A stretch of 64,000 nucleotides of DNA from Sandaracinaceae bacterium (GTDB taxonomy: Bacteria; Myxococcota_A; Polyangia; Polyangiales; Sandaracinaceae): positions 45,306 through 109,305 of the forward strand of contig JBGAQA010000013.1 in assembly GCA_044220955.1 (NCBI GenBank). The letters are read 5' to 3'. Positions 21,889 through 54,120 of the stretch are shown one piece after another (position 1 is the first letter of the stretch; each line of letters starts with the position of its first letter). The position numbers were made by a program, and so were the translations under genes. The notes under the pieces are model-generated. The model was not told where the DNA came from, did no database searches, and worked only from the letters and a program-made list of their open reading frames with translations.

Positions 21889-22824
21889 GTGTTGGCTCTG
21901 CGCGCGCAGCTCGATCGGGTCCGACGCCACGTCGAGGAACGGCTCGACCAGGCGTGGTCGATCGCGCGCCACCGGCTCGGGCCCCGCCCGCTCTCGGTCC
22001 CCTTCGAAGGGGAGCCGCGCTTCGCCGTGGTGACGGTGAACTACTCCACCACACGCTACCTGAAGCTGATGCTGGCGACACTCGGAGAGCAGACCGAGCG
22101 TGCGCGCATCGTGCGCATCGTCGTGGTCGACAACGGGTCGCGCGACGGGGGCATCGGCTTCGAGCGGGCGCTCGCGTCGCGCGTGGGCCGGGTGTCTCTC
22201 GTCGAGAACCGCCACTGGCTCTCGCACGCGCGCGGCGTCCGATCCGGGCTGAGGCGGCTCGACGCGCTCGAGCGGTCGCTGCCCGAGCACCGTCGCGCCA
22301 ACGTCGTCGTGTTCGTCGACACCGACGTGGTGTTCCGTGACCCGACCACGCTCGCGTGCGTCGCCGACCGGCTCAAGGCGCCGAAGGTGGCGGCGGCGGG
22401 CGAGCTCCGGCGAGGCGTCTACCCCCATCCGGAGGCGCAGGCGTCGTTCCTCGTCGTGCGTCGCGACTGCCTGGCGCGCCCCGACGTCGCGCCCTGGGTG
22501 AACCACGGCGCACCCGCGTACTGGCTTCAGCGCAGCCTCTGGCGCGCCGGCCTCGTGATCGCCGACTTCCCGAGCAACGCTGGCGGGTTCGTCCTGCACC
22601 GCGGGCGGAGCGGGGTCGCCGCCGCCGCGCGCTACCGTCCCCGCGCCGCCTACGCTTCGGTGCCGGACGTCGCGCCGCACTACATGGGTGTCGCGGACGG
22701 CGCCGCGATCTGGGCGGCGGTCGAGCGGCAATGGAGCGCGCTCGTTGACGACGACGGGCGAGCGCTCGAGCACCTCGCGCTCCGGTTCGGCTCGTCCCCC
22801 CTCGTCGAATCGACGGGTGCATGA
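21889..22824 (+). CDS. Glycosyltransferase family 2
   Basis: VVTVNY, IVVVDNGSRDG, FVDTD (DxD) motifs. Confidence 0.85.
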   Translation: MLALRAQLDRVRRHVEERLDQAWSIARHRLGPRPLSVPFEGEPRFAVVTVNYSTTRYLKLMLATLGEQTERARIVRIVVVDNGSRDGGIGFERALASRVGRVSLVENRHWLSHARGVRSGLRRLDALERSLPEHRRANVVVFVDTDVVFRDPTTLACVADRLKAPKVAAAGELRRGVYPHPEAQASFLVVRRDCLARPDVAPWVNHGAPAYWLQRSLWRAGLVIADFPSNAGGFVLHRGRSGVAAAARYRPRAAYASVPDVAPHYMGVADGAAIWAAVERQWSALVDDDGRALEHLALRFGSSPLVESTGA

Positions 22825-22854
22825 ACATCGGCTAAATTCGCAATGAGGTCATCC

Positions 22855-23832
22855 ATGAACACACGTTTGCTTTTCTTCCCGCTATGCTCGCTGACCCTGG
22901 GGCTCATGGGCTGTCCTGCGCCGAGCGATGCGCCCGACGCCTTCGTCGGCCAAGACGGCGGGCCCATGATCGACATGGGGCCGGGCCGCGACACGGGCCC
23001 CGGGCGCGACATGGGGCCGATGCCCGACATGGGCCTCGACGCGGGCACCGACGCTGCCGTCACCGACGCGTACGTTCCGCCCGACGCTTTCGATCCGGCC
23101 TGCAGCACGACCTGCGACGACGGCAACGCGTGCAACGGAGCCGAGACGTGTGATGGGACGACGGGGACCTGCGTGCCAGGCGTCGCCCTCGTGTGCGACG
23201 ACTCGATGGCCTGCACGACCGATAGCTGTGATCCCGTGGCCGGCTGCGTGCACGTCACGCCCGACACCGACACGGACGGCGACGACGACTGCAGCGACTG
23301 CGCGCCGACCGACCCCGCGCGCCACCACGGCGCGACCGAGATCTGCAACAGCCTCGACGACGACTGCGATCTCGGGATCGACGAGTCCGTCGCGGGCGCG
23401 TTCTACGCCGACTGCGACGGCGACGGATTCGCGACGATCGGCGCCGCCGTCTCGACCGGCTGCGTCGCGCCCCCGCCCGCCGACACCGGCTGCGGCACCA
23501 CCGCCGAGGCGTGGACGCCCACGATGGCCACCGCTTCGGACTGGGACTGCGCCGACGACGAGCCGGCCGCGCACTCGCACGTCTCGACCTTCCACACGAC
23601 GGCGATCGCGAGCGCGCCCGATCCCTCGGTCGACTTCGACTACGACTGCGACTTCGCCGAGACGCCTGAGTTCCCCTCGCAGGGCTCCTGCGTCATGGGT
23701 ACGACGTGCGTGCTCACGATGGGCTGGGCGCTGGCCGCCATCCCCGACTGCGGCGAGACCGGCGCGTTCGTCACGGCGTGCGGTACAGGCTGCGCGCCCA
23801 CCACGTCGAGCCGCACGCAAGGCTGCCACTGA
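22855..23832 (+). CDS. Cys/Asp-rich lipoprotein with putative metal-binding repeats
   Basis: LTLGLMGC lipobox; CDDGNACNGAETC, DCAP.DP..H.GATEICN.LDDDCD..IDE, FYADCDGDG. Confidence 0.85.
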   Translation: MNTRLLFFPLCSLTLGLMGCPAPSDAPDAFVGQDGGPMIDMGPGRDTGPGRDMGPMPDMGLDAGTDAAVTDAYVPPDAFDPACSTTCDDGNACNGAETCDGTTGTCVPGVALVCDDSMACTTDSCDPVAGCVHVTPDTDTDGDDDCSDCAPTDPARHHGATEICNSLDDDCDLGIDESVAGAFYADCDGDGFATIGAAVSTGCVAPPPADTGCGTTAEAWTPTMATASDWDCADDEPAAHSHVSTFHTTAIASAPDPSVDFDYDCDFAETPEFPSQGSCVMGTTCVLTMGWALAAIPDCGETGAFVTACGTGCAPTTSSRTQGCH

Positions 23833-23852
23833 CGGAAGCCGAGCGCGCGGCG

Positions 23853-24239
23853 ATGCCTCGTCTCCGCGCGCTCGCATCGTATCTGGCAGCGCGCGCGTGG
23901 ATCGCGCGCCACTACGCGGCGACGCCGCTCGACGATCTGCTCGGCGCGATCGATCGCCGCCCCAGCCGGGCACGGTCGCGCGACGACGTGCTCGGAGCGA
24001 TCCGGCTCGCCGAGCCCATCGCGCGGCGCGCGCGCCTCGGGCCGGACACGTGTCTGTTCCGGGCGCTCGCGCGCTATGCGTCGTTCAAGCGCGCCGGCCT
24101 CCCGGTGCGGTTCGTGATGGCCGTCGACGAGGACGACGACCGCGTCGGGCACGCTTGGGTCGAGCTCGACGGAGTGCCCCAGCTGGAGGACGATCTACGG
24201 CGGTACCGACGGACGCTGCAGCACCCGTCCCGCGCGTGA
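23853..24239 (+). CDS. Lasso-peptide B2-type leader peptidase (transglutaminase-like)
   Basis: TCLFRALA.Y..F...G.PVRFVMAV......GHAWVELDG, with Cys/His/acidic triad; start could be slightly upstream. Confidence 0.85.
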   Translation: MPRLRALASYLAARAWIARHYAATPLDDLLGAIDRRPSRARSRDDVLGAIRLAEPIARRARLGPDTCLFRALARYASFKRAGLPVRFVMAVDEDDDRVGHAWVELDGVPQLEDDLRRYRRTLQHPSRA

Positions 24240-25055
24240 GCGCCCGCCGCGGACCACGTGGGCCGCGAGCGAGCGAAGCCCCGCGGCCGCGCTCCGGTTC
24301 AGCAGGTGTACCGCCGGCGCACCCAGCGGGTGGTTGCCCGCAAAGCGCCCGAGCCAGCGCCGAGAGAGGCGCGCCATCGCGTCGCCGCGTGGATCGGGCT
24401 CGAGCGCCGCGAGCACCGCGCGAGCGAACGCGTCGTCGGCCTCCGACGCGATGCCGAGGGCGAGCCGCGCCGCGCGACCGAGCCCGAGCCGCTCGAGGTG
24501 CCGCGCCAGGACGAGGGGCTCCATCGGGAGCGCGCGCGCGACGAGCGCCAGGTCGGCGACGTGGCGGCGGTCCCGAGCATCGGATCGCCCGCGCACGAAG
24601 TGGGCGACGAGGTGTGCGTAGAGGTCGTGTCGCTCGAGCATCCTCACCGAGCGCCCGAAATGGATCTCCGCCGGCAACGCGCGCGCGATGAGCGCATCCA
24701 CGTCGAGGGCGAAGAGCTCCGGCTCGACGAGCCGCTCGTGCAGATCCACGTCCATCCCCAGCGCGGGATCGCGGAGCGTCGTCGCGATGGACGTCTCGGC
24801 GACGAGGACGAGGCCGAGCCCACGGAGCGCCGCGATCGACGCGCTTCGTGATGCCGGTGATACGAGCAGGTCGATGTCGCTCATCCAGCGCGGTGGGGCG
24901 GGCGGATCGAGGCGCTCACCGAGCGCCGACAGGACGAGGCCCTTGAGGGCGATCGGGGCGATGTCGCGGGCTGCGAGCGCCGTCGCCGCCCGGGCCAGGA
25001 GCGCGCGGCCCGTGAGCACACGCTCGGCGGCGCGGAGGTCCTGCTCGTCGCTCAT
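24195..25055 (-). CDS. Nucleotidyltransferase of the type found in lasso/RiPP loci (NTP_transf_5-like)
   Basis: LKGLVLS...PRWMSDIDLLV...VDLH...HLVAH...VADL. Confidence 0.82.
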   Translation of the reverse strand: MSDEQDLRAAERVLTGRALLARAATALAARDIAPIALKGLVLSALGERLDPPAPPRWMSDIDLLVSPASRSASIAALRGLGLVLVAETSIATTLRDPALGMDVDLHERLVEPELFALDVDALIARALPAEIHFGRSVRMLERHDLYAHLVAHFVRGRSDARDRRHVADLALVARALPMEPLVLARHLERLGLGRAARLALGIASEADDAFARAVLAALEPDPRGDAMARLSRRWLGRFAGNHPLGAPAVHLLNRSAAAGLRSLAAHVVRGGRSRAGRVLQRPSVPP

Positions 25056-25070
25056 GAATGGTGCCTTCCA

Positions 25071-25102
25071 TTGACACAACCAACCCCTCCGTGCAGAGTC
25101 AA
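25071..25102. promoter_or_regulatory. Divergent promoter region: TTGACA (-35) on the + strand and inverted TTGACT on the - strand
   Basis: TTGACA at 25071-25076, 17 nt, CAGAGT at 25094-25099; GTCAA at 25098-25102 is the inverse of TTGAC; lies in the 53-bp gap between NTase and precursor. Confidence 0.5.
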
Positions 25103-25108
25103 CGGCCG

Positions 25109-25273
25109 ATGTTCACGGACGAGAAGACGGAAGTCGCGCCGAAGAGCGCCGATTCGACTTCGACCAAGCGCGCTCCGTACGAGCCGCCCCGCGTCGAGCG
25201 TCGCGTCCCGCTTCACCGTCACACGCTCCAGGGCCCGCAGACGTCGGGCAGCGAGAGCGTCTTTCCTCCGTGA
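25109..25273 (+). CDS. Putative RiPP precursor peptide (54 aa) with lasso-type leader
   Basis: MFTDEKTEVAPKSADSTSTKRAPYEPPRVERRVPLHRHTL-QGPQTSGSESVFPP; YxxPxV motif and Thr at -2; next to B2, RREs and rSAM. Confidence 0.75.
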   Translation: MFTDEKTEVAPKSADSTSTKRAPYEPPRVERRVPLHRHTLQGPQTSGSESVFPP

Positions 25274-25300
25274 TCGCCACGTCCAGGGCGGTCTGACGCC

Positions 25301-26338
25301 ATGCGTCGCGTGGGCTTGCATCTCACCGACCGGTGCCAGCTCGACTGCGACCACTGCCTGCGCGACCCCGGCCGGGAGCCGCTCGATCTGGCGTTCGCGA
25401 CGATCGAGATGGTGCTGGTCGAGGCGTCGCGGAGCCTCGGCATCGCTCGCGTCTCGCTGACGGGTGGCGAGCCGACGCTCCATCCGCGCTTCACCGACGT
25501 GCTCGACCTCGTCGTGTCGCTCGGCATGCGCTGGGACATGGTGTCCAACGGCCGGCGCTTCGATCGCGTCGCGCGCTGGCTCGAGGAGCGGCCCGCGCGC
25601 CGTGATGCCTGCGAGAGCGTCGCCTTGAGCATGGACGGCGCTTCGGACTCGACCCATGACGCCATCCGCGGCTCGGGACAGCGTCGCGAGGTGCTGGGCG
25701 CGATGGCGATCCTCGTGGATCTCGGCGTTCCCTTCGAGGTCACGGCGGCGGTCCACGCCCGGAACGCGCACGAGATCCCGGCTATCGCCGAGGAGGCGGC
25801 GGCGCTCGGCGCCTCCGCCGTTCGCTTCGTGATGACCCAGCCGACGGGCACCCCGCTCGACGCGGGTCTGGCGCTGTCGGCGAGCGCCTGGCGCGAGATC
25901 CGCGAGCGGATCGCCGCGCTCCAAGGGCGCGCTCCGATCCCGGTCCTCACGGGGGTGGGCTGGCCGGAGGCGCACGCCGAGACGTGCGCACCGCTGCGCG
26001 GTGACACGCTGCACATCGACCCGCGCGGGCGCCTGACCCTGTGCTGCCAGCACGCCGGGCTGCCGGCGCCGGCTCAAGATCTCACCGTCGTGGGCAGCGC
26101 CGAACGAGGTCTGGCACCTCTGCTGGCGCCATGGGCAGCCGCGCGGCGCGACGCGGCCGAGGCTGGCGCGCTCGAGGGCAGCTGGGCCGCCTTTCGGTGC
26201 AACGGCTGCCTGGCGCGCTTCGGCCGGCCTCACTGGACGGACCAGGGGGTTTCGGGCACGCTGGCCGTCAGGGAGCGTTGGCGGGGAGATGTGGAGCGAT
26301 CCACCCTTCTCGGGCGCTCCCTGAAGGTTCTGACCTGA
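25301..26338 (+). CDS. Radical SAM enzyme with SPASM/twitch-like C-terminus
   Basis: CQLDCDHC, LTGGEPTLHP, SMDGA....HDAIRG; C-terminal C...LHIDPRGRLTLCC...CNGC. Confidence 0.92.
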   Translation: MRRVGLHLTDRCQLDCDHCLRDPGREPLDLAFATIEMVLVEASRSLGIARVSLTGGEPTLHPRFTDVLDLVVSLGMRWDMVSNGRRFDRVARWLEERPARRDACESVALSMDGASDSTHDAIRGSGQRREVLGAMAILVDLGVPFEVTAAVHARNAHEIPAIAEEAAALGASAVRFVMTQPTGTPLDAGLALSASAWREIRERIAALQGRAPIPVLTGVGWPEAHAETCAPLRGDTLHIDPRGRLTLCCQHAGLPAPAQDLTVVGSAERGLAPLLAPWAAARRDAAEAGALEGSWAAFRCNGCLARFGRPHWTDQGVSGTLAVRERWRGDVERSTLLGRSLKVLT

Positions 26339-26393
26339 GCGTCTGAACACATCGGCTTGTTCGCGCAACAGCGCGTCTTGGAGGAATGCATCC

Positions 26394-28502
26394 ATGATGA
26401 TCCACACCAGCGAGAGCTCCGCACGTCGTGCGCGGGCGTGCCTCATCGTGGCGAGCGCCCTGCTTGCGGGCGTGGGGGGTTGTGTCGGTCAGGAGCCCGA
26501 GGCGCCGCGACCCGTCCAGCCTCGGATCCAGGAAGAGCTGCCGATCGTCCAGATCGTGCTCGGCGAGTTCGACGGGCAGGAGCTCACGTTCCGCACGCTG
26601 CAGCCGGACGAGATCCGCGACGGCATGCAGGGGCGCGGAGACGGCGCGGTGGTGGAGGCGCTGAGCGCGATCCCCAGCGTGTCGTGCAGCACCGGGTGCA
26701 CCGGCGCGAGCTACGTTTCGTTCTCGAACGTCAGCAGTCCGGCCTCGTGGAGCGCGCGCCTCACGAGCGGCAGCGACGCGGCGGGGTACACGCCGTGGGC
26801 GACGAACACCTCTGCGGGCAACTGCCCGAGCGCCCCCGCTGCGGGCACGGCCGGCCTCTGTGCTCAGATCCGCGCCCGCAGCACCTACGCCGGCCAGCAG
26901 CTCGAGCGCGCGTACGTCGACTTCACGAGCCTCACGGTGTCGGGCATGACGACGGCGATCTCGATGCCGAGCCAGCCCTTCAACGCCACCTCGGACTTCG
27001 GTGTCAGCCCGACGCTGACGAACGGCCTGCGCCGCATCGGCGAGATCGGCAGGGGAACCACGGCCCTCACGTCGGGGGGTGTCACGCAGTACTGGACGTG
27101 GACGGGCACGACCACCTCCACCGGCGTCATCACCTTCCGCTTCGCCGTCGCGGTGCGCGGGGTTCTCGTCAACCCGACCCAGCGCGCGAGCCTCGCCACG
27201 GGCCAGATCGACGATCCGGCGAGCGACTATCCTGCGCGGACGGCCGTGACGCCTTCCGCGGCCGCGTCCTCGGCGACCTCGATCTCCGACGACGGCAACA
27301 CCGTCGTGTTCGCGACGAGCGCGGGCATCGCGGTGCGGACCGTCTCCACGGGCGCGACGACCACGGGCATCGGCTGCGCGGGAGCCATCAACCCGCACAT
27401 CTCCGGCGACGGGTCGACGCTGGTGTTCCAGGGCCGCTGTGCCGGGGCTGTCGGGACGAGCGGGACGCCGACCACGAACCAGGTCTACGCGTACAGCATC
27501 GGCTCCGGTGTGCTCACGCTCGTCTCGCGCACCGCCGCCGGCGGCTATGCAGACGGCGCGAGCACCGCGCCGCGCGTGAGCAACACGGGCTCGATCGTCG
27601 TCTTCCAGAGCACCGCGACCACGCTCAACCTCCCGAGCATGCAGCCGGTCAGCGGCTGCCCCGAGGCGTACCGCTACGACCTCTCGATCGACGAGATGAC
27701 GCACGTGAGCGCCATCCAGTTCTCCGACCCGGCCGATCCGGCGTCTTGGACGGGCGCGGGCTGCAACGCGTTCAATCCCGCCGGGCAGGCCCCGGACGTC
27801 AGCGGCGACGGGAACCTCGTCGCCTACCATGGCGTCCGGGCGCTCGATCCGGCGGACACGAACGGCGTCGTGGACGTGTACGTCTACGACTACTCCGCGT
27901 CGCAGGGCGCCGGTGTCGCCGCCCTCTTCCGCGTGCAGGGCAGCTCGCCCTGCCAGAGCGCGTCGCTCTCGGCCGACGGGGCTCGCATCGCGTTCGCCTG
28001 CGGCGCTGCCAGCGTGCGGCAGATCTACAGTGGCAGCTCGGCCGAGGGGAACACCTCGTTCGCCCAGGTCTCGCTGACCCCGACCGGTGGTCCCCCGGGC
28101 GCGGCGACCGCGGGCGTGCCGGCGATCTCGAGCACGGGACGCTTCGTCGCGTTCTGGAGCTCCGCCAACGCGCTCTCGGCCGCCGGCAGCTGGTCGGTCG
28201 GCGCCACCTCGCAGGTCTACGTCTGCGACACGGGCGCGCCCATCATGTCGCTCCATCGCTGCTGGGCCGCGAGCGTCCTCGAGCCCACGGCGGCCGGCGG
28301 GACGTTCTCGCCGCTCTCGGGCAACGTCGTTCCGTCGACCCGCATCGAGCTGAGCTACCCGAGCGACAGCGACGCAGGCTACGTCGCGTACACGACCACC
28401 ACCGCCCCGCCCGCTGCCTGGGGCTCCCTCGCCGGGACCAACGCCGTCCTCGTCAGCCCCATCGGCGACCCGCGCTACCAGCAGCCGACGTCGACTCCCT
28501 GA
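26394..28502 (+). CDS. Large Ser/Thr-rich lipoprotein with TolB/PD40-like beta-propeller
   Basis: LLAGVGGC lipobox; ISDDGNTVVF, ISGDGSTLVF, VSGDGNLVAY, DTNGVVDVYVYD, ISSTGRFVAF repeats. Confidence 0.85.
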   Translation: MMIHTSESSARRARACLIVASALLAGVGGCVGQEPEAPRPVQPRIQEELPIVQIVLGEFDGQELTFRTLQPDEIRDGMQGRGDGAVVEALSAIPSVSCSTGCTGASYVSFSNVSSPASWSARLTSGSDAAGYTPWATNTSAGNCPSAPAAGTAGLCAQIRARSTYAGQQLERAYVDFTSLTVSGMTTAISMPSQPFNATSDFGVSPTLTNGLRRIGEIGRGTTALTSGGVTQYWTWTGTTTSTGVITFRFAVAVRGVLVNPTQRASLATGQIDDPASDYPARTAVTPSAAASSATSISDDGNTVVFATSAGIAVRTVSTGATTTGIGCAGAINPHISGDGSTLVFQGRCAGAVGTSGTPTTNQVYAYSIGSGVLTLVSRTAAGGYADGASTAPRVSNTGSIVVFQSTATTLNLPSMQPVSGCPEAYRYDLSIDEMTHVSAIQFSDPADPASWTGAGCNAFNPAGQAPDVSGDGNLVAYHGVRALDPADTNGVVDVYVYDYSASQGAGVAALFRVQGSSPCQSASLSADGARIAFACGAASVRQIYSGSSAEGNTSFAQVSLTPTGGPPGAATAGVPAISSTGRFVAFWSSANALSAAGSWSVGATSQVYVCDTGAPIMSLHRCWAASVLEPTAAGGTFSPLSGNVVPSTRIELSYPSDSDAGYVAYTTTTAPPAAWGSLAGTNAVLVSPIGDPRYQQPTSTP

Positions 28503-28509
28503 GCGCGCC

Positions 28510-28791
28510 GTGACCGGTGCCCCGCGCTGGCGAGCCTCGCCGCGCGCGATCCACACTCGGACGCCGCGGGGCGGGGTCGTGCTCGACCCCGTCTCGAAGG
28601 CGTACTTCGCGCTCAACGCGAGCGCGGAGGTGATCTGGCGGATCCTCGAGACGGGCGCCACGGCGCAGGAGCTCGCGGACGCGCTCTGTCGCGAGTTCGA
28701 GGTCAGCTCCGAGATCGCGCGAGCCGACGTCGCGGCCTGCATCGCCGAGCTCGAGGCGAACGCGCTCGTACACGTCGATGCCGCGCGGTGA
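28510..28791 (+). CDS. PqqD family RiPP recognition element (RRE)
   Basis: VVLD.....YFALNASA..IW..L.......ELADAL..EFEV..E.A.ADV....EL....LV. Confidence 0.9.
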   Translation: MTGAPRWRASPRAIHTRTPRGGVVLDPVSKAYFALNASAEVIWRILETGATAQELADALCREFEVSSEIARADVAACIAELEANALVHVDAAR

Positions 28792-29701
28792 GTCCCAGCT
28801 CGGCCCGCTCCGCGTCACGTGGGAGGTCCCCGACGAGATGCCCGAGGCCGCCGGGGGCCTCGAGCACCTGGCGCCCGGCGCGGACCTCGCGCCCGCGGTC
28901 CGCTGGGAGATCGAGCTCGGCGCGCCGGGCCCGCTGCCCGACGCCCACGATGCGTTCTTCGGCGACGTTCGCGTCCAGCTCGGCGCGGACGCCGTCCGCG
29001 TCGTCAGCCCCGACGCGGATCTGCGCGTCGACGGCGGAGGTGTCCGCGGCCGCGTCCGGGCCCGCGCGTCGCTGCCCGCGTCGATCGCCCTCCATGCGCT
29101 CGCCGCCCACGCCGGGCTGACGCACCTGCACGCGGCCGTGGTGCAGCTCGGAGACCTGACGATCCTCGCGCCCGGCGGATCGGGCGCCGGCAAGACCAGC
29201 CTCGCGCTCGCCGTCGCCGGGGCGGGGGGCGAGCTCTTGACCGACGACGTGGTGTACGTCGACGGCAGCGGCATCGCCGAGCCGGTGCGCCGTCCGCCGC
29301 ACGTCACGGAGGACACGCGGGCGCGCTTCGCGCTCCGAGCGCTCGGTCCGGTGAAGGACGGCCTGCTCCCGAAGCAGCGTGTCCCCGCTCCGCGCGGGGG
29401 CCCGGCGCCGCGCGCACGCATCGACCGCCTGGTGTTCCCCGAGATCGCGCGGGTCGGCGTGACGCGCATGGCGCCGATCGACGACGTGGACGTCTTTCGG
29501 GGACTGCTCGCGTCGAGCGCGTTCGCGATGCTCGAGGGCGCTCCTGGCAGGGAGTCGATGCTCGACACGCTGGCGGCGCTCGCGGAGCTCCCGGCGGCAC
29601 GGCTGCTCGCGGGGCCGGACGCGCTGGCGACGCCGGCCGTCCTGGTGGACACGCTGCGCCGCTGGCTCGCCGATCCGGCGCTCACCCGTGCGCGTCGATG
29701 A
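28778..29701 (+). CDS. HPr-kinase-related P-loop kinase
   Basis: HLHAAVV, GGSGAGKTS Walker A, LLTDDVV. Confidence 0.85.
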   Translation: MPRGESQLGPLRVTWEVPDEMPEAAGGLEHLAPGADLAPAVRWEIELGAPGPLPDAHDAFFGDVRVQLGADAVRVVSPDADLRVDGGGVRGRVRARASLPASIALHALAAHAGLTHLHAAVVQLGDLTILAPGGSGAGKTSLALAVAGAGGELLTDDVVYVDGSGIAEPVRRPPHVTEDTRARFALRALGPVKDGLLPKQRVPAPRGGPAPRARIDRLVFPEIARVGVTRMAPIDDVDVFRGLLASSAFAMLEGAPGRESMLDTLAALAELPAARLLAGPDALATPAVLVDTLRRWLADPALTRARR

Positions 29702-29963
29702 GCGCGTCGGCCTCGAGGTCGGCGAGGAAGGCGACGACGTCGCGGGCGAGCTCTGCTTCGGGGACGTCGAGCTCCGATCGAATGATCGCGACGATCTCCG
29801 CGCTCGTGCGCCCGCCCAGCAGCTCCCACACGCGCGCGCCCATCTCGTTGAGGACGCGCGCCTCGAGCGAGGGCACGCGCACCACGATCATGCGCCCATG
29901 CACACGTCGCGCGATCACGCGCTTGGCGAGCCGCCACCGCCGGGTCACGCACGCACATTGCAC
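29682..29963 (-). CDS. Second PqqD family RRE protein
   Basis: VLNEMGARVWELL.G.T..EIV..I..E.DV....L.RDV..FL.DL....LI. Confidence 0.88.
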   Translation of the reverse strand: MQCACVTRRWRLAKRVIARRVHGRMIVVRVPSLEARVLNEMGARVWELLGGRTSAEIVAIIRSELDVPEAELARDVVAFLADLEADALIDAHG

Positions 29964-29998: not shown

Positions 29999-31357
29999 GT
30001 GCGGCCCATCCTCCTGCTCGAGCTCAACGAGGTGCACTGGCCGGTGCTCGACCGCATCGCCGCTCGCCACGGCCGCCTGGCGGGGTGGCTCGCGCGAGCA
30101 CGCTCTCACACCACGATCGTCTCGCCCGAGACCCGGCTCTCCCCCTGGATCACGTGGCCGACGCTACATCGGGGCCTCCGGGCCTCCGAGCACGGCATCA
30201 CGCACCTCGGGCAAGATCCGCTCACGGGGCATGGCACTCCCCTCTGGGTGGAATGCCGGCAGCGCGGCGGATCGATCGGCATCGTCGGCGCGCTGCACAG
30301 CTGGCCCCCCGGAGATCCCGGGCCGGACGGGTTCCACGTCCCGGACACGTTCGCCGCGAGCGCCGCGTGCTGGCCGCCGGAGCTGGAGCCCTTGCAGGCC
30401 ATGAACCTCGCGCTGACGCGCGAGAGCGGTCGCGTCGCGAGCCGCCGCGTCCCCATGCGTCAGGCGCTCGCCGCCCTGCCGGTCGCGCTGCGCCTCCGCT
30501 TGCCTCCGTACGTCGCCTCGCGCGCCGCGCGGCAGCTCGTCGCCGAGCGCCTCGACGTCGACCGGCGGGACGCGCGCCCGCTGGTGCAGGCCACCCTCTT
30601 CTGGAACGTCTTCCGGCGTCTCTACGCGCGCGCCGGTCGACCCCTCGCCTACGCCAGCTTCTTCACCAACCACGTCGCGAGCGTGCTGCACCGCCACTGG
30701 CGTGAGGCCTTTCCCGAGGAGCTCGCGCCGCGGATCAGCAGCCGCGTGCATCGCGACACGGTCGAGCGAGCCTTCGATCTGCTCGCCGAGATCGTCGTCG
30801 ACGCGCTCGCGCTCGCGCAGGCGCACCCCGACCTCTTGCTCGTGCTCGCGAGCAGCATGGGTCAGGCGGCCGTCCACCGCGGCGCGCACCACGGCCGCGA
30901 GCTCGCGATCGGCGACCTGGCTCGCCTGCTCGCGCTCGCGGGCATCCCCCCCGAGGCTCACGCCCCTGGCATCGCGATGGTCCCGCAGGCGACGACGCGC
31001 GTCGGGGATCCCGCCCTGCGCGCTCGCGTCCGGCAGGAGCTGCACGCGCTGCGCACGATCTCGGGCAAGCGCTTCCTCGACGTGGAGGTGCGGGGCGAGA
31101 GCGTCAGCGTGACGATCGGTACTCCCCCGCGCGGCGACATCGATTCGGGGGTGCTGGTCGAGCACTCGGGCGCGCACGTGCGCTTCGAGGACGCGGGCAT
31201 CGTCGTGCACGAGGTGGCGCGCGGCACCGGCAATCACGTCCCGCAGGGCGCGCTCGCGCTCGCCGGTCGCGGCATCGCGCCCGACGCGTCGCGCTCGGAG
31301 ATCCCGCTCGAGAGCGTGAAGGGGCTCCTGCTCGAGCTCGCGGAGCATCCGTCTTGA
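29999..31357 (+). CDS. Alkaline phosphatase/nucleotide pyrophosphatase superfamily-like protein
   Basis: LLLELNEV, LSPWITWPTLHRG, FFTNHVAS..HRHW, ASSMGQ, TGNHVPQG motifs. Confidence 0.6.
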   Translation: MRPILLLELNEVHWPVLDRIAARHGRLAGWLARARSHTTIVSPETRLSPWITWPTLHRGLRASEHGITHLGQDPLTGHGTPLWVECRQRGGSIGIVGALHSWPPGDPGPDGFHVPDTFAASAACWPPELEPLQAMNLALTRESGRVASRRVPMRQALAALPVALRLRLPPYVASRAARQLVAERLDVDRRDARPLVQATLFWNVFRRLYARAGRPLAYASFFTNHVASVLHRHWREAFPEELAPRISSRVHRDTVERAFDLLAEIVVDALALAQAHPDLLLVLASSMGQAAVHRGAHHGRELAIGDLARLLALAGIPPEAHAPGIAMVPQATTRVGDPALRARVRQELHALRTISGKRFLDVEVRGESVSVTIGTPPRGDIDSGVLVEHSGAHVRFEDAGIVVHEVARGTGNHVPQGALALAGRGIAPDASRSEIPLESVKGLLLELAEHPS

Positions 31358-33033
31358 GCGTCGCGGCGATCCGCCGCCTCGTCGGCGAGCGCGTGCTCTC
31401 GTGGCTCGCTCTCGGAGCGGCGGCGGGCGCGGCGCTCGGAATGGTCGAGCTGGCGATCGCGACGTGCCTCCTGCTCTTCCTCGAGAGCCTGGGGCTCACA
31501 CCCTTCGGCGCTGCGCGGCCCGCGTGGGTGCCGGCGCCGATCCCGCTCTCTCGGGCGCTCGCCGGTCTGCTCGTGATCGCGGCCGTCCGCGCGGTGGCGC
31601 ACTTCGTCGCGAGCCAGTCGTCCTACGAGGCGCAGTACGGGCTCGACGCTCGCTTGCGGCGGTTCGCGCTGCACCAGATCCTCGTGCGCGAGGCGCGCCA
31701 CGTCGAGGCCGCCGAGCTGCACCGCCAGCTCGCGGACACGTTCCCGAGGGCTGCGAGCGCGGCCAACCAGGCCGCCGCCTTCACGTCGGCCTCCGTGCAG
31801 GCGCTGGTGATCGCGGTTCTCCTCTTGATCGCAAGCCCGGTCGAGGCGCTCGTCGGGCTCGCAGGCCTGGTCCTCGTCGGATCGCTCGTGCTCGGGCTCC
31901 AGCGCCGCGTGCGCCAGATCGCCGAGAGCATTCCGCGCGATCAGCGCACGCTCTACCGGGGGATCGAGCGGGTCGCGCGGAACTTCGTGCTCGTGCGCGT
32001 GCTCGGGACGGAGCGACACGAGCGTGGGCGCCTCACCCGTGCCGTCGACGGCTTCGAGGGCGAGGCGCGTCGGGCGTCGCGCCTGGTCAGCCTCGCGTAC
32101 GCCGCCACCCCCTTCTTCGGGTCGCTGCTCCTCGTGGCGATCCTCGCGCTCGGGCACGCGGGATTCCACACCGACGCGACCCGGCTCGTGTCGTTCGCGT
32201 ACCTCTACGTCCGCTTCGTGCAGACGCTCGCGGGGGCCGTCCGAACCTTCACCGGCGTCGCCCAGTCCTGGCCGCAGCTGCGCGAAGCGGCCGCGCTCGC
32301 GTCCGGCCTGGACGAAGCAGCGCGCGCCGAGGCTCTCGGTCCGGTCGCGGCCGAGGGGCCGTCGCCGGAGCAGCGAGCGACACCGACGAGGCCGCCCTCG
32401 GTGGCGCTCGACGGGGTCCGTTTCCGACATCCCGGCGCGACGGCGGACGTGATCTCGGGCCTCTCGCTCGACATCGGGTCCGGGGAGCAGCTCGCCATCC
32501 GCGGTCCGAGCGGTGCGGGCAAGAGCACCCTCGTCCTGCTCGTCCTCGGCTTCCTCGAGCCCCGGGCGGGCACCGTCCGGCTCGACGGCCGTGCGCCGAG
32601 CGAGCTCTGGGGCGCCGGGCGCGCCCGCATCGGCTACGTGGGGGCCGAGCCCTACCTCGTCGCCGGCACGCTGCGCGACAACCTCGGGTACGGCCGCCGC
32701 ACACCACCGACCGACGAGGCGATGTGGTCCGTGCTCGCGACCGTGCGCCTGGACGCGATGGTCCGCGCGCGTCCCGAGCTGCTCGATCTTCCCATCGACG
32801 AGAACGGCGGCGGGCTCTCGGCGGGCGAGCAGCAGCGCGTCGCGCTGGCGCGCGCGCTGCTCGGCGACCCGCTCTTGCTCGTCCTCGACGAGGTCTCGGC
32901 CAACCTCGACGCCGAGCTCGAGCGCGAGATCGTCGAGGTCGTGCGCGGTCTGCGCGGCCGCTGCACGACGATCGTCGTCTCGCACCGGCCCGCGATGCTC
33001 GCGCACGCCGACCGCGTCGTCACGCTCGTCTGA
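31354..33033 (+). CDS. ABC exporter, fused permease and ATPase (no C39 peptidase domain)
   Basis: N-terminal TM helices; GPSGAGKS, LSAGEQQR, LLVLDE, VSHR. Confidence 0.92.
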   Translation: MSVAAIRRLVGERVLSWLALGAAAGAALGMVELAIATCLLLFLESLGLTPFGAARPAWVPAPIPLSRALAGLLVIAAVRAVAHFVASQSSYEAQYGLDARLRRFALHQILVREARHVEAAELHRQLADTFPRAASAANQAAAFTSASVQALVIAVLLLIASPVEALVGLAGLVLVGSLVLGLQRRVRQIAESIPRDQRTLYRGIERVARNFVLVRVLGTERHERGRLTRAVDGFEGEARRASRLVSLAYAATPFFGSLLLVAILALGHAGFHTDATRLVSFAYLYVRFVQTLAGAVRTFTGVAQSWPQLREAAALASGLDEAARAEALGPVAAEGPSPEQRATPTRPPSVALDGVRFRHPGATADVISGLSLDIGSGEQLAIRGPSGAGKSTLVLLVLGFLEPRAGTVRLDGRAPSELWGAGRARIGYVGAEPYLVAGTLRDNLGYGRRTPPTDEAMWSVLATVRLDAMVRARPELLDLPIDENGGGLSAGEQQRVALARALLGDPLLLVLDEVSANLDAELEREIVEVVRGLRGRCTTIVVSHRPAMLAHADRVVTLV

Positions 33034-48657: not shown

Positions 48658-51600
48658 ATGTCGCGTGGGTCGGAGCTGACGCGTGTCTCTCTCTGCATCC
48701 TCTGCGCGCTCGCTGCGTTCCCGGTCGGGTGCGCCCCGCCTGATTTGAGTGCCAGCGAGGAGGACCTGATCGAGGGGACGAGCGATCTCGTCGCCGCGGA
48801 CGACGGCAGCTTCACGTTCGTCGACGACATCCGTCAGTGGCGGCGAGACTCGGTCGTCTTCGTTCGCTTCCCCGGTAACGACTGCTCGGCGACGCTCGTA
48901 GCCCCCGCACGTTGGCGACGGCGTCGCACTGCGTCGGGACCTTCGGAAGCGGACCCACCATGGCGTGCTTCGGCGCGCAGAATCCGAGCGGCACTGGCGC
49001 GCTACCAGCGGGGATGCCGCCGCAGCAGTGCTTTGCGGTCGTCGGGTGCGCGACGCACCAGGGCTCCCAGCGCGCTTGCGGTGACGGTCGGACCGACGCC
49101 AACGCACAGCGGGACCGCGACATCGCGATGCTGGTGCTCGAACAGCGCTTCGATCACGGTCAGACGGGTAGACGCACCCAGGACTTCCATGTCGTGCCCG
49201 CGCAGCTCGTGGCATCGGACCCTGGCAATGACCCGAGCCAATGGAACTCGCATCCTGTCCGCGTCGTCGGTTACGGTCCAAATGGCGGATGCCCCGAGAC
49301 GGGTGTGCCTGGCACCTTCGGCCCGCTGCGCAGCGTCGGCGGCACGAGCGTCCGGTACGGCAACGTTCCGCTCGCCGACATCACGGCGACGATCGATCTG
49401 TGGGCTGCCGTCAGCATGGGGGGCGATAGTGGCGGTGCAGTGTTCGTGGATCGGCCTGACGAGGACGGGCCGCTGCAACTGCTTGCGGTGAATACGTACA
49501 CCTACTTCGCGGCATTGAGCCCGTGCCCACCGTATGCCGATGGCGTGGATGCACACGATCGGGGCACACGCGTCACGTACGCTGACGTCCAGTCCTTCCT
49601 GGCCCGCTTCCTGGGGCAGCGCTTCCTCGCGCCGCCGCCGCCGCCGTCGATGCCAGCCGTGGCCGGCGAGCTCGTCTGCCAGGCCGGTGTTCCGGCGCTG
49701 TGGCTCGGCGACGTGAACGTTGCGCCGGTGGGGGAGCCCGAGCGCGTCGGCTTCGTCGACCCGGCGACCGGCCTCGCCGCAGATGTGTTCGATCCGGACG
49801 GCGATGGGCTCGCAGGAGCGGCGGACAACTGCTGGGGCATCCGCAACGACGATCAGAGGCTGGGCGACCCGACGAACCCCAGCCTCGCGTCGTGTGTGCG
49901 GCCCTCAAGCGGCGCGACGGTCTCGTACGGCTGCGACCCGGCGACCTCGAGCGCACCCGGGGCGCTCGAGACCTCCATCGATCCGGACGGCGACCGGATT
50001 CCGACGCCCTGTGACATGTGTCCGTGGGTCCGCGATTTCGATCAGCGCGATCGCAACGGGAACGGGATCGGCGACGCGTGCCGCTGCGGCGATCCGCGGG
50101 TGCCTCCGGGGGCGCCGTGCGACGTGGACACGGACGGCGACGAATACCCAGACGACGTCGATAACTGTGCGGGCGTGCCCAACGCCGATCAGCGCGACTG
50201 CAACGCGGATGCCGAGATTCACGTGCCAGGCGCCGCCGTGCTCGGGGACGCGTGCGACACGACGCCTTGCGTGACCACGGTCATCGAGAGCGACACGGGG
50301 CGCGGGGACGCCAGCGCGATCGTCATCGACCGGGTGCGAGGGGATCCCACCGGGACTTCGCCTGGCTCCTTCCGCACGGGCTTCCGCTTCTGCCCCTGTT
50401 CGGTCGCGAGTGACAACTCGTCCACATCGCGCGACCGCTGCGAGTCTTTCAACGTGTCGGACCGGTCCGGCGGCTGCGAGATTGCTAACCCGGCCCTCTT
50501 CCTCCTCCCGACGACGCCGCCGCTCGAGCGCGCCGACTTCCGTCGGGTCACGCTCAGCCCCGGCTCCGTCGATTCGGTCGGGCGGGTCGATCTGGTGCAC
50601 GACCTGCCCATCGTCTTCACCTTCGACTCCGGGTGGGACATCACGCGGACGGATGCTCCCCGGTGGGAGACCGCGTTTCCGACGTTCTACCCCGCGTCCA
50701 CGTCACCGAGCCCACCCGCTAGGGGCACCCCGATCCACGGCGTCTTCTGGAGCCTCACGTTGGGGCCGACCGCGGGTACACCTTTCGGCGGCGACCCGGC
50801 GCGTCTCGCGAGTAGCTACTTCAGCGGGCCGATCGCGGACACGTTCGCCCTCGTCGGGACTCCGCCACCGCGCGAGCCGTTCGTGCCGTTCCTGCCCCTC
50901 CCAATGGACAACGGGTTCTGTGTGTTCTGTGGCGACCAGCTCCCGATCCCGTGGGCCGTGCTCCCGTGTCTCGATCGGCGCTGCACGGGCCTCGACCCGA
51001 CCGATCCGTCGATCGCGCTGCGCGACGCGCTGGTCAGGCCGAGCGTCGCGCCCGCGTTCCATCCGCCGGGGCTCGAGCTGCTCGGCGGGCTCGGCACCGC
51101 GCGGTGGGCGGCCGCGCCCGAGCCCTTCGCGCTCGACGACGCCGCAGCGCTCCGGTTCGTCGCGCTCGACGCCTCGAGCGCTCTCCCCGTGCGGCTCCTG
51201 ACCGGCGCAGGATCGCTCGCGAGCTTCGGCAAGGGTGGGTGCCCGCCGGAGCAGCAGTGCTTCCAGTTCCCGCTGACGAGCGCAGCGACCGTCGACGCCG
51301 CGGGGAAGGAGTCGCCGCCCGAGCGGAGCGACTTCGCGCTCGCCGTCTCCGCGACACGCGCCTGCGCGTGGATCGTGGGCGGGCGAACGAGCGGCGGAGC
51401 GGAGCTGCACGACGTGTGGCTCTACGGTGCCACCAACGCGAGCTGGCAGCCCTTGATCTTCACTGGCGTGGCCCTCGGACGCGTGCGAGCGCTCGCCTAC
51501 GCCGCCGACGAGCAGGCGCTTTATCTGCTGGACGAGATCGACGCCGGTCGGCGCGCATCGGTGCGCCTAGTGCGTGCCGCTGCGTTCGGAGGTGCGGCGG

Positions 51601-51911
51601 TCGTTGTGGGCACGTGGCCGCGCTCGCGGGTGAGTGACGCCGTCGTGCTCGCGGCGGACGGCCGAGCGCACCTCTGGCTGGGTGCGTCGAATGGTGGCGC
51701 CCACGCCGTGACGCGCCTCTCACGCGACGCGCGTGATCGATGGCTCGCGGACGGGTTCCGCGCCAGTCCCGGGGCGCTCGAACGGGACGGCGCCTACGCG
51801 AACGTGCGCGGCCTCTCGATCGCGGTGCGTCGAGCGGACGGGCGGAGCGAGATTGTCGGCTACGACGCTCGGGACCTGGTCCCGCGCGGGGGGCCGGAGC
51901 GATGCTTCTGA
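48658..51911 (+). pseudogene. Large secreted trypsin-like serine protease with thrombospondin type 3 repeats; frameshift near 48905
   Basis: First frame: lipobox and CSATLVAP; second frame: LATASHC, RDIAML, GDSGG, D.DGDG..DNC repeats; one extra C in the C5 run at 48902-48906 restores the frame. Confidence 0.8.
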
Positions 51912-53242: not shown

Positions 53243-53565
53243 CGCCGCATCGAGCAACCTCGGTGCGTTTCGCGACGGGTTATGGCCGCCCCGTGGAATC
53301 CGGGCCGTCCGGCGCCTTTTCGAGCGGCACGGGGCGTGTGAAGGCTGCGGGCGTACGCCGCTTGAGCGCCGGTTTCTCGCACCGGTCGGGGGCACGCGAG
53401 CGGGAACGTTGTGGTCTCGGTGCAGGGGGCACGACGTCCCGGCGCGGCCGGCGAGGCCCGCGGGCGGCGCGGCAGGGGTGATCGGCGGGAACTCGGTTCG
53501 CGTCTCCTGCGCGGGCGAGCGAGGGACGGATCCGTGCGTCCCCGCTCGCGCTCTCGCGCGGCCGG

Positions 53566-53755
53566 TCAGGGGGGAGTCGAAGGTCTGGTGCTGGTCGGGC
53601 GCCCCGCGGGCGGGGTGCAGCGGCCTCGCTCGCTCCAGAGGGAGAGGTGCTCGAGGCGGCGGCGTACCTCTTCTCTGTCGTGGAGCACCGCGACGAACCT
53701 CAGCCACCCGGTGCACCTCGGGCACTTCAGCACGTCCAGGCCGAAGCTGTGCTTC
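53566..53755 (-). pseudogene. C-terminal remnant resembling IS91-family (Y2) transposase tails
   Basis: KHSFGLDVLKCPRCTGWLRFVAVLHDREEVRRRLEHL zinc-ribbon tail; fused directly to the IstB remnant. Confidence 0.6.
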
Positions 53756-54120
53756 ACGACCGCGGCGCAGCTCATCGACGAGCTCTCGGCCGCGAGCCGC
53801 GAGGGCAAGCTCACGAGCGCGCTCGCGACGTACATGAGACCGCATGTGCTCGTCGTCGACGAGGTCGGCCACCTCGCGTACGGCGACGAGCGGCGAACGT
53901 GTTCCTCCGCGTAGTCAACTAGCGCCACATCCGCAAGCGCTCGATGATCTTCACCACGAACAAGAAGCCCAAGAGCTGGGGCGACGTCCTGCACGACGAC
54001 GATCTCGCCGAGGCCATCGTCGACCGCATCCTCGAGCGAGGTCGCCTCCTGCGCCTCGATGGCCCCTCGATTAGGACCAAGCATTTGGCCACGAGGAAGT
54101 CGTCGGCGATGATCCTCAGA
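53750..54120 (+). pseudogene. istB: IS21-family helper ATPase IstB, 3' half with frameshift and stop
   Basis: FTTAAQLIDEL...VLVVDEVGHL / ANVFLRVVN* ..SMIFTTNK...WG.VL.D..LAEAIVDRILE.G..L.L.GPS.R. Confidence 0.85.

Follow-up and report, generated by a model that had tools for sequence, protein, structure and literature searches.

The locus described here raises the question of whether a 54-residue open reading frame with a lasso-like leader encodes a genuine RiPP precursor and, if so, what its short tail becomes. The window, which is the whole 64,000-nucleotide stretch of Sandaracinaceae DNA that was analysed, had received an initial annotation. Its reading of a RiPP precursor with a lasso-type leader, a cut in the L40 register and no thioether stood, while its Glu9 acceptor, its bar to phosphorylation and its atypical core did not. 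The frame is a genuine, conserved RiPP precursor with a lasso-type leader, and it belongs to a widespread, uncharacterised RiPP pathway that brings known parts into a new combination. As for the product, our preferred reading, held tentatively and slightly short of an even chance, is that the 14-residue tail matures to a linear, Ser-phosphorylated peptide with D-amino acids, the neighbouring radical SAM enzyme acting as a peptide epimerase.

The precursor gene and its transcription

25071..25099, + strand: promoter-like box, TTGACA with a 17-nt spacer and a weak -10-like hexamer (conserved in the nearest loci)
25109..25273, + strand: precursor peptide, 54 aa (open reading frame list; homologues in close radical SAM loci; RNA-library contigs)
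25178..25228, + strand: conserved 17-residue leader end Y(-17)xxP(-14)xV(-12)...T(-2)L(-1), predicted to serve RRE binding and B2 recognition (column frequencies; complex prediction)
25229..25270, + strand: predicted 14-aa core QGPQTSGSESVFPP, 1416.65 Da unmodified (computed)

The frame is as it had been read, with 54 residues, YEPPRV at residues 24-29, T39-L40 and the 14-residue tail QGPQTSGSESVFPP. The tail has the composition ascribed to it, namely Gln1, T5, S6, S8 and S10, Glu9, a single Phe and a Pro-Pro end, with neither Cys nor a C-terminal Ser. Its leader motif is commonplace, since YxxPx[LVIM] followed by Thr occurs in 26 short ATG-started frames across the whole 7.5 Mb genome (88% complete), and it is therefore the genomic context and the conservation that lift the precursor gene above chance. 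In a genome-wide profile search, the sole B2 gene of the genome and its only two PqqD/RRE genes were found to flank the precursor.

A sample of 169 loci around relatives of the radical SAM enzyme was assembled, and a leader profile was run on the 105 close loci with enough upstream DNA. The check that had been proposed, the collection of short frames beside homologous radical SAM genes, yielded a homologous precursor in 84 of these loci, directly upstream of the radical SAM gene in 72 of the 84. A precursor with a score of at least 20 was absent from the other 21 of the 105, some of which have one farther off or of another type. Precursor homologues were recovered only via the neighbourhood of the radical SAM enzyme: a protein search with the 54-residue peptide returned the window's own 71-aa gene call as its sole candidate (1 of 1), and the peptide has no match in Pfam or NCBIfam. 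The nearest homologue (locus L114) has the core QGPQTSGSESFFPP, and over 31 codons the two genes differ at 7 synonymous and 5 non-synonymous codons.

The 10 nearest loci were examined, and 9 of them have the box TTGACACAAC...TGCA(G/T)A upstream of the precursor. Counted from TTGACA, the ATG is base 39 in 8 of the 9 box-bearing loci and base 36 in one, and the transcript is likely nearly leaderless. A strict consensus scan for promoters and terminators gave 0 sites at the locus, and the intergenic RNA after the precursor stop folds no better than its shuffles (z -0.46). The frame is also open upstream to an ATG at 25058, which would give 71 aa; this start was rejected, as the conserved box at a fixed distance favours 25109, and as a weak hint no RNA contig reaches upstream of 25104.

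Six RNA runs contain part of 24900-26400, and five of them, from four studies, were placed. Contigs lie over the precursor in 5 of these 5 runs, starting at 25104-25128 and ending at 25351-25373, and for comparison the contig of a DNA run spans 22798-26114. The RNA contigs are a hint of precursor transcription and of the 25109 start, short of proof, because the runs were selected for containing some of that 1.5 kb, because the contigs carry no strand, level or true ends, and because DNA may be present in the libraries. The B2 gene, the nucleotidyltransferase gene and most of the radical SAM gene are without RNA cover in the placed runs, from which silence does not follow. As a separate observation, one contig (X15, depth 3.5) has T for C at 25235, which would change Pro3 of the core to Ser and could be a strain variant or an error; another (X16) apparently comes from the precursor region of a relative.

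A lasso-type leader without a lasso cyclase

23853..24239, + strand: lasso B2-type cysteine leader peptidase (NF033537, 37.3 bits against a cut-off of 33; PF13471; Cys...His-x-Trp-x-Glu; single copy in the genome)
28510..28791, + strand: stand-alone RRE of the B1/PqqD family, first copy (PF05402 over cut-off; NF033530, the best NCBIfam match, 58 bits and under its cut-off of 70)
29682..29963, - strand: second stand-alone RRE (PF05402 over cut-off; counterpart in L018, L019 and L114)

The consensus of the last 17 leader residues in the family is YEAPRxxKKRSVARATL. Among 84 unique precursors, Thr occupies position -2 in 89% and Leu position -1 in 96%, at a constant distance from the YxxP anchor; the Y and P of this anchor set the register of the alignment, and their own conservation is accordingly not counted. 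By these frequencies the cleavage after L40 that was suggested at the outset is in the right register as a predicted cut, and the claim of a lasso-like leader is borne out by YxxPx[L/V/I] together with Thr(-2). The lasso leader model NF033521 gives weak matches to 4 of 50 family members (the best with E 0.004), the window's peptide not being among them.

Binding of the precursor by the RRE receives weak support from modelling. The predicted complex scored 0.54 against 0.02 for the best of three controls, with at least 95% of contacts shared between runs and a partner pLDDT of 58. The mark used for such predictions was reached by 116 of 157 solved pairs and 2 of 215 mismatched pairs, the range up to 0.60 holding just 18 of the solved pairs along with the two mismatches, and the score obtained here may be due to the existence of solved structures of lasso RRE-leader complexes.

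The phosphorylated lasso peptides (Bsf of Bradymonas, PMC10368454; paeninodin; pseudomycoidin) are, in the available text, alike in their split B1/B2, a kinase with His...GxxGxGKS/T...DD, a nucleotidyltransferase and an ABC exporter, and the BsfA leader has the same Y(-17), P(-14), L(-12) spacing (PMC10368454). In contrast, the window's family has neither a macrolactam cyclase nor a conserved ring acceptor, and carries a radical SAM gene beside the precursor. No macrolactam cyclase was found on the contig, the four asparagine-synthetase matches of the genome all lying on other contigs, nor among 28 further proteins of the window. Across 43 genomes the cyclase model NF033535 is over its cut-off in none, with weaker asparagine-synthetase-like matches in 40, and a profile built from this genome's three AsnB proteins gave a strong match in 3 of 170 loci, all of them ordinary AsnB-like.

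Glu9 had been described as a lasso-acceptor-like residue. It is incidental, because no more than 9 of the 86 cores have Asp or Glu at core positions 7-9 and the cluster is without a cyclase. It is very improbable that the product is a lasso peptide whose Gln1 and Glu9 are joined by an asparagine-synthetase-like enzyme from another locus: the lasso-type leader, B1, B2 and Glu9 are all present, and the sub-cut-off matches in most genomes could supply such an enzyme, but both the cyclase searches and the rarity of the acceptor speak against it. A five-residue tail behind a nine-residue ring and an N-terminal Gln are also poor fits. Membership of the lasso peptides was thus rejected on the missing cyclase and the missing conserved Asp/Glu acceptor, with leader, B1 and B2 all of lasso type.

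Core peptides of the family

Every one of the 86 unique cores contains Ser or Thr, and 79 have it at position 2. Of the seven that deviate, L042 is off its register by one residue, and the other six belong to the window's own clade, all with a Q/G/P extension and an internal x-S-G. In the window's core the extension QGPQ shifts x-S-G inward, its Ser becoming Ser6. The cores are 9-30 residues long and rich in Gly (23% of core residues). Cys is missing from 74 of the 86, any of F, W, Y or H from 28, and all aromatics, Cys, Asp and Glu together from 24, while a C-terminal Ser ends 2. Among the 80 cores first counted, Trp occurs in 0, Tyr in 2 (one being a mis-cut row), and Ser or Thr followed by G, A, P or V in all 80; the conserved aromatic in a three-residue motif expected of the triceptide type is missing from the family cores. 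Since related cores are not independent, these counts describe the sample and no statistical test was attached to them. In remoter relatives from other phyla the same gene set accompanies different cores, for example the Phe-rich QFFGGFSP or FFQSVESGATN.

The argument that the lack of Cys excludes sactipeptide or ranthipeptide chemistry holds for the window's core and for most of the family. Thioether and aromatic cross-links as family-wide reactions were rejected on the 74 cores without Cys and the 28 without an aromatic residue, and a family-wide cross-link would be without a conserved partner, because aromatic residues, Cys, Asp and Glu are all missing from 24 of the 86 cores. Neither Glu9 nor Phe12 is characteristic of the family, and ring closure, thioether formation and aromatic cross-linking are not the family's reaction.

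The core had also been called atypical. It is likely a derived form of a two-Cys type, xSGxECVFxPPxxC, with Ser10 standing for the first Cys and the Q/G/P extension placed before x-S-G. In the enzyme tree (a quick method on 81 rows, excluding those with less than 230 aa of enzyme, L026, L128, L154, L163 and L164), the window's clade nests among xSGxECVFxPPxxC cores (SH-aLRT 96), and two-Cys and Cys-free cores stand side by side. Two close relatives outside the tree, L154 (68% identical over the fragment) and L026, retain both Cys.

Such a change invites the thought that the cassette has drifted in the window's lineage, the extended core escaping the kinase or receiving a second trim at T-S|G, so that the product would be unlike that of the family. 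It is in this clade that all 6 of the 86 cores missing Ser/Thr2 through extension are found, the window's enzyme sits on a long stem, and a second RRE is present in the clade. We nevertheless consider drift improbable: all genes are intact with their catalytic motifs, the x-S-G and the acidic-x-hydrophobic-Phe pattern are maintained throughout the clade, and the cores of the window and L114 differ at one residue with radical SAM enzymes that are 58% identical.

Partner genes and predicted serine phosphorylation

24195..25055, - strand: NTP_transf_5 nucleotidyltransferase, divergent from the precursor (PF14907, 77 bits; DxD motif)
26394..28502, + strand: secreted or lipid-anchored protein, 702 aa, PD40-type propeller (PF07676)
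28778..29701, + strand: HprK-like kinase (PF07475 at E 5e-5 and TIGR04352 at E 3e-6, neither reaching its cut-off; His...GxxGxGKT...DD as in BsfK)
29999..31357, + strand: 452-aa protein, possibly of the alkaline-phosphatase superfamily, of uncertain cluster membership (PF01663 on 14% of nearest Atlas cluster members, a lead only)
31354..33033, + strand: ABC exporter, membrane and ATPase parts, candidate export route (PF00005, PF00664)

By profile, the precursor, RRE, B2 peptidase, kinase, nucleotidyltransferase and the specific radical SAM enzyme travel together, without a lasso cyclase. In 38 long loci, defined by a family precursor and at least 6 kb on each side and including the window, the kinase, the RRE and B2 all have a count of 36, and the count for the nucleotidyltransferase is 31; the profiles were built from the same loci, with family names verified by Pfam. 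The B2, kinase and nucleotidyltransferase genes of the window are intact and have their catalytic motifs. A large secreted protein from one of four families is present in 25 of the 38, and optional partners are a methyltransferase-like domain, at times joined to the transferase in one protein, as well as a formyltransferase in 7 of the 38 loci and a sulfotransferase in 2. N-terminal capping may thus be a theme, matching a Gln1 that could form pyroglutamate.

Several observations on these neighbours can be added. The N-terminal domain of the 702-aa protein resembles that of a second secreted family, which adjoins the precursor in other loci (the proteins concerned are the window's own, those of L034, L043 and L149 in family f10, and the L018:f8 paralogue); the pattern common to the N-terminal domains, C...CxxVxLRxxY...ERAY/VY, was noted by eye, and the C-terminal domains differ. 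The nucleotidyltransferase is fused to a methyltransferase-like domain in L029, L034 and L036, about 2-4 kb upstream of the enzyme, and in four Polyangium loci the methyltransferase-like part alone remains near the cluster. The formyltransferase heads the cassette in L020-L023, L031 and L145, with the sulfotransferase in L031 and L145. Directly upstream of B2 lies a MopE-repeat lipoprotein-like gene (22843-23832), in the same place in both Sandaracinus loci and partly covered by RNA contigs in two runs. The 452-aa protein at 29999..31357 has no Pfam or NCBIfam match and no PDB sequence match. A GT2 glycosyltransferase (21889-22824), together with the genes at 29999-33033 (the possible alkaline-phosphatase-superfamily protein and the ABC exporter), may constitute a small surface-glycan set, not peptide genes.

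Turning to the kinase, the absence of a C-terminal Ser had implied a bar to phosphorylation, as this residue is the target of PadeK, ThcoK and PsmK (available text of PMC8498205 and PMC9266682). Such an absence is no obstacle, because other kinases of this kind phosphorylate internal serines, BsfK of Bradymonas acting on Ser3 with the help of its RRE and with strictness for position 3 (PMC10368454, as far as its available text goes), and LppK on Ser3 of linear peptides (PMC13381572, likewise); the Ser/Thr at position 2 of most family cores would offer a comparable site. Ser6 (25244-25246) is here the predicted phosphorylation site, as the equivalent of the family's Ser/Thr2. Given the strictness of BsfK, a kinase that followed its motif to position 6 is an extra assumption.

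The nucleotidyltransferase raises a different possibility for the radical SAM enzyme, which might remodel or epimerise a group on phosphoserine, namely a sugar or nucleotide added by the transferase, with the peptide as carrier or anchor of a phospho-glycan tied to surface polysaccharide. Ser/Thr is the sole modifiable residue common to all cores, the kinase and the nucleotidyltransferase are near-universal partners, and polysaccharide genes commonly adjoin the family loci, as they do the LPP and paeninodin loci (available text of PMC13381572). Furthermore, PsmN adds hexoses to phospho-pseudomycoidin (PMC8498205, PMC9266682), a free Cys serves as H donor in the sugar and nucleoside enzymes NeoN and PolH (PMC5682303), in each case by the text available, and BlsE is among the top fold matches of the enzyme. 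This remodelling is still rather unlikely, as the nucleotidyltransferase is missing within 9 kb in 7 of the 38 long loci, the four Polyangium loci with an intact radical SAM gene among them (although it may lie elsewhere in the genome), and as the enzyme gene directly follows the precursor in most loci. Epimerisation of the core peptide itself remains the preferred reading.

The radical SAM enzyme and the proposed pathway

25301..26338, + strand: radical SAM enzyme, 345 aa, no fused RRE, with CxxxCxxC, C229, C248-C249 and C300xxC303 (PF04055 over cut-off; model pLDDT 90)

The cysteines C229, C248, C249, C300 and C303 are kept in 140, 140, 139, 139 and 139 of 140 full-length homologues, respectively. 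The corresponding C-terminal pattern Cx18Gx4CC...CxxC (G at 243) is complete in 127 of 133 distant representatives spanning the region, and the second Cys of the CC pair is absent in 6. Within the genome, Gx4CC was found in 1 of 20 radical-SAM-like proteins, which is the window's enzyme, although this control is small. Four Cys are enough for one auxiliary cluster, and one of the five C-terminal Cys is therefore spare. Relatives in which the second Cys of the pair is missing (L057, P0178, P0189, P0200, P0242, P0244 and P0259) would be natural controls for the idea of an H donor.

A similar layout is known from EpeE (YydG) of Bacillus subtilis (PDB 8AI1-8AI6; PMC13012085), an enzyme alike in its size (about 320-345 aa), its lack of a fused RRE and its five C-terminal Cys arranged as C, Gx4CC and CxxC. 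In the sequence given in the supplement of PMC13012085, counted by eye, these are C206, G217-x4-C222-C223 and C289xxC292. According to the available text of PMC8326336 and PMC5682303, EpeE has one auxiliary cluster and C223 is the H-atom donor that quenches the C-alpha radical. C249 falls in register with C223 and is a candidate H donor. The end points of the structural alignment, 309 in the window's enzyme against 298 in EpeE, give an offset by which C300/C303 pair with C289/C292. The identities of the Cys that ligate the EpeE auxiliary cluster are here an assumption of ours.

The two enzymes also differ, as their identity is 15%, the spacings are 18 + 50 here against 15 + 65 in EpeE, and TIGR04078, the family of epipeptide enzymes, is matched with 21.9 bits against a cut-off of 300. 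As a fold match EpeE ranks 33rd-37th (Z 17.5-18), behind SuiB (Z 24.5), SkfB (23.0), BlsE (22.2), CteB and anSME, in a ranking that is driven by the common barrel at 12-23% identity. A profile of the C-terminal domain found no radical SAM structure in the PDB, sequence searches with the C-terminal part gave noise only, and full-length profiles list EpeE solely through the barrel. When plasmids were searched for relatives resembling EpeE, none of the best 60 of 613 matches was useful. The enzyme is under the cut-off of every NCBIfam family among the 25 matches listed. Epipeptide membership was rejected on the failure to match TIGR04078, the one-cluster-plus-spare-Cys Gx4CC pattern being found at the level of sequence only. 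We know of no RRE, B2 peptidase or kinase in epipeptide clusters.

Given that the best folds belong to the cross-linking and oxidising SPASM/twitch enzymes SuiB, SkfB, CteB and anSME, it could be supposed that the enzyme oxidises the core, by a Ser/Thr-to-backbone ether, another cross-link, a desaturation or an oxidation of Ser, the fifth Cys being a structural residue or a ligand of a second metal site. The Ser/Thr-G/A/P/V pair in all 80 cores first counted would suit such a reaction, and the radical SAM enzyme occupies the place of the cyclase in the gene set. It is considered unlikely, since the cores offer no conserved aromatic, Cys or acidic partner, the fold ranking reflects the shared barrel, and the Cys layout matches that of EpeE, a redox-neutral enzyme.

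Because the cores share only Ser/Thr and Gly, they are most simply accommodated by a redox-neutral reaction that is tolerant of its substrate, and epimerisation combined with Ser phosphorylation is therefore given the confidence stated at the outset, just under even; Gly-rich cores count against it, as Gly cannot be epimerised. In the pathway so conceived, the RRE would bind YEPPRV and present the precursor, and B2 would cut after T39-L40, as in the biochemistry of lasso, Bsf and LPP systems. The HprK-like kinase would phosphorylate the Ser of x-S-G, that is Ser6 here and Ser/Thr2 in the majority of relatives, and a nucleotide or sugar may be added to this phosphate by the nucleotidyltransferase. 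The radical SAM enzyme, which presumably holds one auxiliary [4Fe-4S] cluster through C229, C248, C300 and C303, would abstract a C-alpha hydrogen of the core, and free C249 would return hydrogen on the other face, like EpeE C223. Candidate sites are Val11/Phe12, as suggested by the conservation of V/I/F-F in the clade. Gln1 may cyclise to pyroglutamate, and export of the product would be through the ABC transporter, with the cell surface as its place of action.

Relation to known systems and distribution

The closest parallel in gene content is LPP of the Bacillota (lppA/K/B/S/D/N; PMC13381572). Its available text describes a YxxP leader, a stand-alone RRE, a kinase of HprK-like type, an NTP transferase and an ABC exporter, no cyclase, a variable core, a link to polysaccharide loci, and a kinase acting on an internal Ser near the N-terminus of the core. 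LPP differs in using a SipW-like signal peptidase that cuts after Thr(-1), whereas the window's family has a lasso B2 and Thr(-2), and in occurring in other phyla; the terms "radical" and "rSAM" do not appear in its main text (PMC13381572). No SipW-like signal peptidase was found among the 14 cluster-region proteins scanned. LPP membership was accordingly rejected, B2 replacing the SipW-like peptidase in a gene set that otherwise agrees (RRE, kinase, NTP transferase and exporter, without cyclase).

The SynChlorMet (ScmD/E/F) and HPr-rel-A cassettes are alike in pairing PqqD, an HprK-like kinase and a radical SAM enzyme, and they give the best NCBIfam matches; these are distant, with the enzyme at 78 bits against a cut-off of 400 for TIGR04251 and the kinase at 26.5 bits against 200 for TIGR04352. 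To our knowledge, both cassettes are themselves uncharacterised.

The window's family lies outside the lasso peptides, LPP and the epipeptides, because a defining test failed for each of them, namely the cyclase and acceptor, the SipW-like peptidase and TIGR04078. In the full-text literature searched, which included the accessible parts of PMC9259500, PMC11002830 and PMC8436480 and had most subscription journals outside its scope, the gene set is not described. We give an even chance to the view that the family represents a so far undescribed RiPP class spanning several phyla, in which the leader machinery of lasso peptides serves an independently evolved, RRE-guided radical SAM epimerase (or a remodeller of phosphoserine-borne nucleotide or sugar) that would act on almost any short core to give surface-linked D-amino-acid phospho- or phosphoglyco-peptides.

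The C-terminal domain of the enzyme is matched by 395 clusters at 50% identity, with relatives in Acidobacteriota, Nitrospirota, Planctomycetota and Gemmatimonadota. The spread of the enzyme is patchy: within the order, 37 of 401 genomes carry it, and the counts are 8 of 31 for the remaining genomes of the family and 0 of 5 for those of the genus. One conserved leader precedes at least 86 different cores, and this implies that the enzymes are very tolerant. To this family the locus contributes a myxobacterial branch, whose highly variable and often aromatic-free cores constrain the chemistry more than the Phe-rich branches do. Should epimerisation be right, the enzyme would add a third kind to the radical SAM peptide epimerases of proteusins and epipeptides; leader-guided and with its own peptidase, it would be a useful tool for peptides with D-residues, and it would provide a handle on the role of NTP_transf_5 in RiPP clusters. 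The system also bears on two questions left open in the LPP paper, at least in its available text, the role of the NTP transferase and the reason why LPP peptides adjoin polysaccharide loci (PMC13381572). Since cultured, sequenced hosts are at hand (Sandaracinus amylolyticus, Polyangium, Minicystis), direct testing is possible.

Two further observations concern other loci and the rest of the window. In Longimicrobium (L103, L105 and L106) the enzyme is flanked by two different precursors, whose cores are in one case of the two-Cys kind and in the other very short; in L103 the kinase, B2 and RRE were not found by profiles within 9 kb. Beside a 999-aa frame of the window (48912-51908; no Pfam match at E 1e-5) lies a short IstB-like (IS21) ATPase fragment at 53411-53911.
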